Of a stretch of 64,000 nt of DNA, positions 25,980 through 28,900 are shown piece by piece. The notes beneath the pieces are model-generated. The model worked only from the letters and a program-made list of their open reading frames with translations, made no database searches and was not told the origin of the DNA. This DNA is from Stegostoma tigrinum. Lineage: Eukaryota. Each line of letters begins with the position of its first letter. The first letter of the stretch is position 1. The DNA lies in contig NC_081356.1 in assembly GCF_030684315.1 (NCBI RefSeq), positions 29,971,197-30,035,196 of the forward strand, given 5' to 3'. The position numbers and the translations under genes are program-made.

Positions 25980-28900
25980 GTAGGTGTATGCATCACAAAC
26001 TATAAACAAAATAATTAGCAGTGACAAAGGGCTGAGGTTATCTATTTATTTGGGATTGGTGACATGATGAATGTTAACTTGCATTGTTATTACAAAAATT
26101 GAATCCACAGTGACAATTTGCAACTAGTAGATCATTTATTCCCTACTCGTTTCTTTTAGGAATGTACCTTCTGGCTGCGAGTAATGTCAAGGCAGCCGTC
26201 CAAATAAATAATTTGCAGAATTTGAATAGCAAATTTTCTAACAGACTTTTGTCGCAGTGCAACTTTACAATGGCACAAGTGTAAAGCCACTGTGCTGAGC
26301 CACAAGATCGTTATAGCCTGATGATGACTACCCTCCGTGTCATGGAATTTTCTAGCTCCAGAGGAGTAATGTATTTTTGTTCAGTGGTAGTGTTGATTAT
26401 TTTGGGATTTTGTTTAAATTGTAATAACCCTCACTGGTGGTATGATGTTGATGATGAGCAAGGATTGGAATTGGCTGGTGAACCTACGCTTCTGTTGTGG
26501 TTACTGACCTATGAAAAGAAATTGCTGTGTATAAATCTGAACACTTTTCAGATACCTGATAAATTGAGGTAACTTGTTTAACAAATCTTGCTAACAAAAT
26601 GTTTTGCTTCAAAGCGTGCTTCCATTGTGGATTTGAAATCTGCATATTAATTTAGAAACAGTTCATATCAACTACTTGATGTCTGTTCTCTAATGTCTGA
26701 AATGTTATTAACTCATTAGGTCATTCAATTTTAATAATGAATATGTCATTGAAACAATATGGCCTTGTAGGTTAACTGATTTTCCTTGTCACAGTTCAAA
26801 CAGATCTCTCAAGCTTATGAAGTGCTGTCCGATCCCAAGAAACGAGAACTCTATGACCGAGGTGGTGAGCAAGCTATTAAGGAAGGTGGAGGCGGTGGTA
26901 GTGGATTTGGTTCACCCATGGACATCTTCGATATGTTTTTTGGTGGTGGAGGCAGAATGCATAGAGAAAGGAGAGGTAGAGATTCTGTTCCTGGTTGGTT
27001 GGTTGTTTGTTTTTTTTTGAAGGCTTTATTATTTGACATTATTATTTAAAAGGTCCAGCATGTGGGAGCAAAATTACACACTGACAGCACATACTACTTA
27101 TTGGTGGGTGCATTAATGACCATGTGATTTTGCCAACTGTTTGTTAGTTAGTAGGACAAAATGGGTAAGTAAATGACCTGTTTTAAGTAGGAAATCTCTC
27201 ACTTGCTGATGGTTTATCAAATTTTGGGTACAGCTGTTCAACCAGTCATGCTGACAAGATGGGAATAGCTAATTGAAGTTGCTTGAAGACTAAAGTTCAC
27301 CCACAGCCAATTGAGTCTTTAATTTTTTTTAACGGGATGTAATTTTGGGGTGTGGGTGTGTGTGATAACAATTGTAACTGGGCAGAGATATTCCACATGG
27401 ATCACAGTATGCGTACATGTGAACTTGTTTATTGTGAGAGCAAGATTAGAACAGCATTGGTTTAATCCAGTGAACCCTGAAGGACTGAATGACATTGGAA
27501 AAGACAAAGGAGTAGACAACTCACAAGAAATCTGTACATAGGCTACTTGAACTATTAGTATTTATGCTATCGGAAGTCAGAACCATTTCAGACTTCCAAT
27601 TACACAAGGTTACTTTGCAACTTTTCACTCCAGTCTTTGAAAGCAGTGATCAGAACACTGGGATGATGGGGAATTTAAATGATCTAATTTCAGATTTGCA
27701 GATGATAAAGCACTTTTAGGAAGTACAAAACATGGGTTAGTAGAGCTAGTAGAGTTAACAGGCTTTAGTGACTGGGAAAGCTGTGGTGATTATTTCAGAA
27801 GGAAGATAACAACTAAATTCAAATGTTTGGCAACAGTGACATCTGGAGATGGAAGGTGTGACAAAAGAATAAGGTCGTGATGGGAATGACCCATATTTAC
27901 GAAGAGATGGTTGCTAAACTGAATAAAAAGCTTTGGTTTTTTTTCACCCTTTTTAATGTGGTATAATTGGCATTCTTATTGTGTGGGTTGGGAATAAAGA
28001 GCTTGATTCGGATTGTTTTGAATGGATGTGAGACTCCAACCTTATGGTAGATAGTGATCAACTAGGTAAATATATTTTGAATTGTGTTGAGAATGGAAAG
28101 GATCTGCTGGACAGAAAATGTAACAAATACAGTACTGTGGAGAGTGAATAAACATTTGTTGAATGTAATTAGGTTGAAGGATAGGGGAAGGAGACTACAT
28201 GTTATGGAGGGAAAGTTTTTAACGAAGGTAAGAAATACTTCTGAAGGGTCTAGGCCCGAAACGTCACCCTTCCTGCTCCTCTGCTGCTTGGCCTGTTGTG
28301 TTCATCCAGGTCTACACCTTGTTATCTCAGATTCTCCAACATTGGCAGTTCCTACTATCTGTGTAAGAAATATTTGTTGGGTGGGTTGAAATTTAAAGGA
28401 AGTTATTGGTCGGTAAGGGAAATGGCACAGGATAGTGAAAAATGGAAAGACTACAGTGTCAAGGACCTGTCCTCAGGCAGAGGACGTGATCTTTTATGAT
28501 GAAATAAAAGATGTACTTAGCCTGTAAATATGTTTACAATATTATCAATATCAAAATCTGAATCTTTACTGTAAAAGTAGAATGTTATAAATGCTAGACC
28601 TTTGCCTAGATAAGAGAACCCACTTTTTACATAATAAAAAACCCAAAAGAACTGTGGATGCTGTAAATCACCAACAAAAACAAAATTGCTGGAAAAGTTC
28701 AGCAGGTCTGGCAGCATCTGTGAAGGAGAAAGCAGTTAGCGTTTTGGGTCCGGTGACCCTTATTCTTCAGAACAGCTGAGTTCTGAGGGACGGTCACCGG
28801 ACCTGAAACATTAACTCTGCTTTCTCCTTCACAGATGCTGCTAGACCTGCTGAACTTTTCCAGCAATTTTGTTTTTGTTCCCACTTTTTAGACCATAAGA

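Follow-up and report, generated by a model that had tools for sequence, protein, structure and literature searches.

The palindromic insertion at positions 28619 to 28890 of the window, a stretch of 64,000 nucleotides from Stegostoma tigrinum, is almost certainly a Penelope-like element (PLE) end, and in all probability it records a single abortive integration of an endonuclease-bearing PLE, the palindrome having been built at landing and being now decayed and inert. As a locus it is an ordinary decayed copy among very many, and belongs to a known kind of PLE insertion.

The left copy of the target site duplication (TSD) occupies 28619..28629 on the plus strand, possibly extending to 28632 (14 nt), since contigs from relatives align through that base. 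Next comes the PLE tail, a 3' extension of 40-43 nt that is confined to one arm and lies on the minus strand at 28630..28672 (28633-28672 if the TSD exceeds 11 nt), in a position matching that of the tails of other copies in the window. Self-alignment delimited the left arm, a 5'-truncated pLTR end in minus-strand sense (28673..28775) with a decayed minimal hammerhead at about 28735-28773, and the right arm, a tail-less pLTR end in plus-strand sense (28776..28879) with a decayed minimal hammerhead at 28778-28817; the right TSD copy follows at 28880..28890 on the plus strand. The sequence-only reading had placed a tiny spacer between the arms. Instead, the arms abut head to head at a 6-nt self-complementary centre (CAG|CTG, 28773..28778, to which no strand applies) without a real spacer. 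The 11-nt repeat, CCCACTTTTTA, was found at 28619-28629 and 28880-28890 and nowhere else when both strands of the 64 kb were scanned. Alignment of 28673-28879 with its own reverse complement gave 86% agreement over 214 columns, with the outer 63 nt of the arms 98% complementary, so that the description of the arms as near-perfect holds for this outer part and fails for the inner ∼41 columns, where 10 of the 11 arm-to-arm differences reside. Folding of the plus strand from 28630 to 28880 predicted a single hairpin of -166 kcal/mol (z -21.9, equalled by 0 of 200 shuffles) with 99 pairs and a longest uninterrupted run of 62. Self-alignment, fold and repeat scan together confirm the proposed hairpin of inverted arms with a one-sided tail and a flanking repeat of 11 nt, although the tail, previously given as 35-40 nt at 28635-28672, is to be read as 40-43 nt at 28630/28633-28672. 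The string read from the right arm, GAGTT-CTGAGGG-A-CGGTC-ACCG-GACCT-GAAAC-ATT-AACTC, matches the sequence exactly. An Rfam scan of the window found no hammerhead; 28638-28732 gave a weak match to the ZFAT-AS1 region model (E 0.41, 25.9 bits where the gathering score is 80), which was taken as chance.

The insertion lies mid-way in a 3.4-kb intron (26976-30354) of a DNAJA1-like gene, with both splice sites >1.4 kb away. The upstream exon (26795..26975, plus strand), which carries the end of the J-domain, has DnaJ homolog subfamily A member 1 as its best PDB match (E 2.6e-29); this exon and the downstream one (30355..30459, plus strand) were placed by their splice sites, and further DNAJA1-like exons mapped in order on the plus strand. 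An aprataxin-like exon was detected farther upstream on the minus strand (E 1.4e-10), and APTX adjoins DNAJA1 in the human genome. A near-intact PLE hammerhead end (20.2 bits) was also observed at 8508-8610, in a CpG-rich stretch that may lie near the start of the aprataxin-like gene.

Identification of the insertion as a PLE pLTR end is based on association with GIY-YIG and reverse transcriptase (RT) sequence, on alignment of the arms and on covariation in stem I of the hammerhead. The open reading frame remnant at 44873-46051 has a GIY-YIG-like motif, with the same hammerhead-bearing end behind it, and forms part of an autonomous PLE remnant of a sibling subfamily (44655..46051, minus strand), recognised from its homologues, in which an RT-end/GIY-YIG frame is followed by a hammerhead-bearing, tail-less pLTR; this remnant lies outside the insertion and provides context. 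Within the window frame itself the GIY-YIG match is weak (E 0.12). All 11 longer homologues of the frame matched at E ≤ 2.3e-31 (best 3.7e-78), an RT domain being listed for nine, and both of the two homologues that were scanned carried RVT_1 and GIY-YIG, partly under the Pfam cut-off. The hairpin arms align with the pLTR end behind this frame as a sister subfamily, the comparison being with a sibling-subfamily element. The Penelope origin claimed earlier is thereby upheld, as is derivation by retrotransposition rather than from a DNA MITE; PLE homology, a one-sided tail and variable TSDs speak against a MITE. The insertion displays an adjacent inverted 5'-truncated copy, a tail of the 30-40-nt class on one end, and a TSD with a single-copy empty site. 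As an unrelated-family control, a hammerhead-core pattern scan yielded 50 metagenome loci in 28 clusters; BLAST of the hairpin arms against these 50 loci gave no match, only the hammerhead core being common, and sequence homologous to the GIY-YIG endonuclease region of the window adjoins the core in 20 of the 50. Hammerhead pattern scans of viral contigs and prokaryote genomes found nothing.

The core and stem II of the hammerhead were preset by the search pattern, whereas stem I was not, and each of the three stem I pairs varies at both of its positions (18 cells, a level reached by 0 of 500 shuffles), a count over 19 distinct but related rows that is not a probability. Consensuses of loose ends, from 201 and 132 contigs, are intact over stem II and GAAACGTT. 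An intact family motif can thus be derived, as had been supposed, from these consensuses and the stem I covariation, and since the family consensus is intact the lesions of both arms represent private decay. With core numbering after PMC4209133, the right arm has A9 changed to G, C in place of G at 10.1, which breaks the G10.1-C11.1 pair, and A at 16.2, which leaves 15.2/16.2 non-palindromic; in the left arm G12 is changed to A and U16.1 to C, and the core linker carries 3 inserted nt. In neither copy, therefore, is the set of C3-A9, G12-A14, G10.1-C11.1, U16.1 and palindromic 15.2/16.2 intact. Against a hammerhead model trained on 20 motif copies, the right arm scored 16.1 bits (E 0.12) and the left arm was undetected at E ≤ 5; two window copies from outside the training set scored 25.7 and 20.2 bits, and the five window copies within it scored 45-52 bits by construction. 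The predicted pairing probability of stems I and II was 0.00 in both full-length strands, whereas stem II reached 0.4 and 0.8 when each arm was folded in isolation. Whichever strand is considered, the motif lies 3' in the transcript and is paired to the antisense arm, which is transcribed first. The proposal that a transcript of either strand would carry a ribozyme is therefore left without support, both hammerheads being predicted to be inactive through core lesions and burial in the -166 kcal/mol hairpin. The perfect 5-bp stem I is present as read (GAGTT/AACTC), but its outer G was probably made by the junction, as three other window copies of the subfamily have C. Minimal hammerheads are described in PMC4209133 and PMC11167929 as needing a same-strand partner or protein help.

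Next, contigs of four runs were aligned to 28000-29900 at 80% likeness. A contig of organism B (X5 record 24) aligns over 28340-28632 and, after four letters, over 29586-29900; a contig of organism C (X14 record 10) aligns over 28344-28632 and, again after four letters, over 29586-29738. The interval 28633-29585 is accordingly absent, and the target single-copy, in both of these other organisms, a count that rests on X5 and X14, a second run of organism B (X15) having been left out as it has no coverage of the left flank. Since contigs without the hairpin hold the target once, the hairpin is a true insertion with a TSD, and the earlier view of a single event with its own TSD, together with the suggestion that an empty site be sought in relatives, is borne out. 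Because alignment of the relatives extends 3 nt beyond the 11-mer, the TSD may reach 14 nt with its right copy cut by a CR1-like insertion; its length is possibly 11-14 nt. The B contig differs from the window flanks at 38 of 608 aligned bases (∼6%), which bounds the age of the insertion.

The interval missing from B and C also contains a LINE 3' fragment (28891..29575, minus strand; right edge approximate, with the gap continuing to 29585), which we take to be CR1-like. It was overlooked in the sequence-only reading, lies at the same T-run as the palindrome, begins directly at the right-hand repeat and is absent from B and C; its RT-terminal open reading frame (28973-29401) resembles the RVT_1 frame at 41726-43243. 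Nested within it is a tail-less PLE monomer of the sibling subfamily (29245..29361, minus strand), which is bounded by an 11-nt TSD of its own and has a hammerhead that looks intact; its joints 29244->29350/29351 and 29245->29352 were present in 17 contigs of run X1. The gap 28633-29585 thus comprises palindrome, CR1-like fragment and nested PLE monomer, so that this spot has taken three insertions in the lineage. Two sibling-subfamily monomers, at 28241-28361 and 29254-29346, face each other across the hairpin with 83-85% complementarity, and from their sequence a further RNA duplex, enclosing that of the hairpin, could arise within this intron. The first of these bears a 12/13-nt TSD and looks older, because the B and C contigs begin inside its tail. 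The frame at 41726-43243 is itself a 505-aa LINE reverse transcriptase frame (RVT_1, E 3.9e-35), apparently from a young copy.

With regard to mechanism, priming from both nicked strands is, at about even odds, the likeliest route by which the mirror half was made during integration. On that account, the PLE protein would nick the two strands of an AT-rich site at points 11-14 nt from each other; the top-strand nick after the 11-mer would prime the tail-bearing arm from a distal start site, and the bottom-strand nick before the 11-mer the tail-less arm from a proximal one, each 3'-OH priming reverse transcription on uncleaved PLE RNA. Both cDNAs would halt a few bases beyond the hammerhead core, their ends would be joined via the short self-complementary centre, and gap filling would create the TSD. 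Sense RNA alone, with priming on two strands, would in this way yield one TSD, one tail and head-to-head arms. PMC11167929 reports that the purified anole PLE protein cuts and extends both strands in vitro, and that RT initiates at two sites bracketing the tail, mainly on uncleaved RNA, with a dimer predicted; that work demonstrates the ingredients in vitro and not such a product, and their application to the hairpin is an inference. Tail-less ends of PLE monomers recur at one position, and a second RT start site directly explains why the end of the tail-less arm coincides with them. Two-strand priming resembles the twin priming of L1. In the literature searched, which took in few subscription papers or Repbase/Dfam entries, no account of these shark stubs or of PLE two-strand priming was found.

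Landing-site assembly leaves one feature unexplained, namely the bias of arm differences towards the centre. The ten inner differences include three attributable to CpG decay, one to junction offset and one at the variable N7 base; about 2.7 would be expected at a 6.5% age bound (P 0.0005 for ten and 0.02 for seven, with the boundary chosen post hoc). Copies near 23700 and 35600 lean likewise, with inner counts that are inflated by junction asymmetry. The possibility of A-to-I editing having left its footprint in the template RNA was rejected, since the tail points to a minus-strand template, whereas the few A>G changes occur on the plus strand, one of them at the variable N7 position. A literature search on revision of palindrome centres found nothing.

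The sequence-only reading had likened the palindrome to a MITE amplified as a unit, and had itself named unique junctions as the observation that would count against this. Junctions within the window, the metagenome loci and the run contigs lean against it. The centres of all five window palindromes (∼8858-9022, 20466-20684, 23603-23790, 28630-28879 and 35609-35758) differ from one another, and four sites of an unrelated metagenome family (L006, L017, L040/L050 and L047) likewise have four different centres. Little probability is accordingly given to a palindromic, non-autonomous PLE derivative that would be transcribed whole and moved as a unit by retrotransposition. Summed contig depth over the centre (28767-28773) was 276-421 in X1 compared with ∼2,000,000 in the arm bins, with similar ratios in three other runs, a hint only, in that contig depth is not copy number, alignments end near 28761 because of the hairpin's indels, and contigs are broken by palindromes. 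Among the pieces listed, five span the centre; they all come from organism B, and their length classes are -8, 0 (six gap letters) and +3, none of which equals the hairpin. In favour of unit amplification, junctions cluster near the 5' edge of the hammerhead, pLTRs can mobilise other sequence in trans according to PMC3846280, and a sibling-subfamily joint, 29347->28243, is recurrent among the joints listed (19 contigs in X1, and 3, 4 and 1 in the other runs). Given this joint and the grouping of junctions within ∼10 nt of the core, some small units may have been amplified, and to that extent both weigh against assembly at landing. Short PLE copies starting less than ∼10 nt from the core were observed at 8883-8890, 23375-23380, 23705-23713, 28236-28243, 29346-29350 and 31322-31336, which suggests, speculatively, an RT stop or RNA 5' end there. 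CAG precedes stem I in three copies of the hairpin's subfamily, and an intron in Drosophila Penelope is reported in PMC4209133 to end at this spot. An unlikely but broader conjecture is that the stubs derive from a short, non-autonomous PLE RNA of their own, or from a hard stop of the RT, with stem I of the hammerhead as the 5' edge. A PLE dimer would copy two such RNAs at once from both nicked strands, seeding shark introns with huge numbers of ∼100-bp dsRNA hairpins; some of these would be amplified again as units, and mutation would then proceed faster in the centres than in the outer arms. If this were true, head-to-head PLE inversions would need no antisense template of the kind proposed in PMC3846280.

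The near-symmetric centre without a spacer is explained equally well by fold-back, in which priming occurs once, the cDNA or an antisense template folds back at the 6-nt centre to copy itself, and the second arm loses its tail through endonuclease resolution. This possibility, considered less than likely, gains from arms that are 98% alike outside the hammerhead and that share a 1-nt departure from the family majority near 28683 (loose ends), and from the symmetric centre of L048; self-priming from junction palindromes on an antisense template is proposed in PMC3846280, and the tail is ascribed to endonuclease resolution in PMC8557442. Unequal truncation of the arms in most other palindromes (8858-9022, 20466-20684, L006, L017, L040 and L047) argues against fold-back, however, as does the coincidence of the tail-less end with the tail-less monomer ends. 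Separate insertion of two monomers, or local inversion or gene conversion at a later time, would suit a site that received at least three insertions in this lineage, and the uneven divergence of the arms could reflect conversion of their outer parts; but one TSD brackets the entire unit, both arms are absent from B and C, and the one-TSD layout recurs at L017 (349-919, a complete TSD-tail-arm-arm-TSD arrangement with a 14/14 TSD) and L040 (327-581, the same palindrome layout with a 14/15 TSD), making such origins very improbable. Least credible is co-option of the hairpin or ribozyme for regulation of DNAJA1 RNA processing. A hairpin with a very stable predicted fold does lie in the pre-mRNA of a stress gene, and lizard Penelope repeats are reported as heavily edited in PMC5625713, but the insertion is lineage-specific and >1.4 kb from either splice site, both hammerhead cores are damaged and such copies are very abundant. 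The ∼100 bp of dsRNA foreseen in the DNAJA1-like pre-mRNA is supported by the fold, with its 62-pair run, and this intronic RNA hairpin, as modelled, is likely to be the sole present-day effect of the insertion; it may serve as a substrate for A-to-I editing.

The wider value lies in the stubs as a class, which are clean records of a step in PLE integration. Their geometry of one TSD, one tail and head-to-head arms fits two-strand priming, and junction censuses in shark genomes could separate this from self-priming. They may also supply A-to-I editing in these animals with intronic dsRNA on a large scale.

An inverted truncated copy with a tail and a TSD is a standard PLE feature set in PMC3846280, PMC8557442 and PMC8969392, the tail being defined in PMC11167929 and PMC3846280. 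The hairpin shares with insertions of endonuclease-bearing PLEs (PMC3846280, PMC8557442 and PMC11167929) 5'-truncated head-to-head arms, a 30-40-nt tail at one end, a short TSD, a junction palindrome and an AT-rich target; it differs in having no open reading frame, halves of ∼104 nt that end just past the hammerhead, and a TSD of 11 nt or slightly more, that of rotifer PLE insertions being given as 8-10 bp in the same group of papers. With the minimal type I hammerheads of metazoan PLEs (PMC4209133) it has in common the CUGANGA core, one bulged base, stem II, GAAAC and the lack of a real stem III. Opposite-strand hammerhead pairs 100-700 bp apart are already noted in that source, whereas both copies in the hairpin have core lesions and the motifs lie merely ∼10 nt apart. 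Non-LTR retrozymes (bioRxiv 10.64898/2026.07.22.740005) are likewise small, non-coding and related to PLE pLTRs, with a type I hammerhead, but consist of tandem direct repeats with two same-strand hammerheads; identity with them was rejected, the arms being an inverted pair that lacks tandem same-strand units and cannot release a unit-length RNA. MITEs such as the palindromic Xenopus Harbinger repeat (PMC5625713) resemble the hairpin as ∼200-bp self-folding sequences that are likely ADAR substrates. A MITE or DNA transposon identity was rejected on termini that are asymmetric and on TSDs of no fixed length (11, 11, 13 and 15 nt in window copies, with candidates near 20500, 23700 and 35600 of 8-10 nt with a mismatch left out), and the hairpin is set apart from MITEs by its asymmetric tail, family TSDs of 11-15 nt, variable centres and PLE homology.
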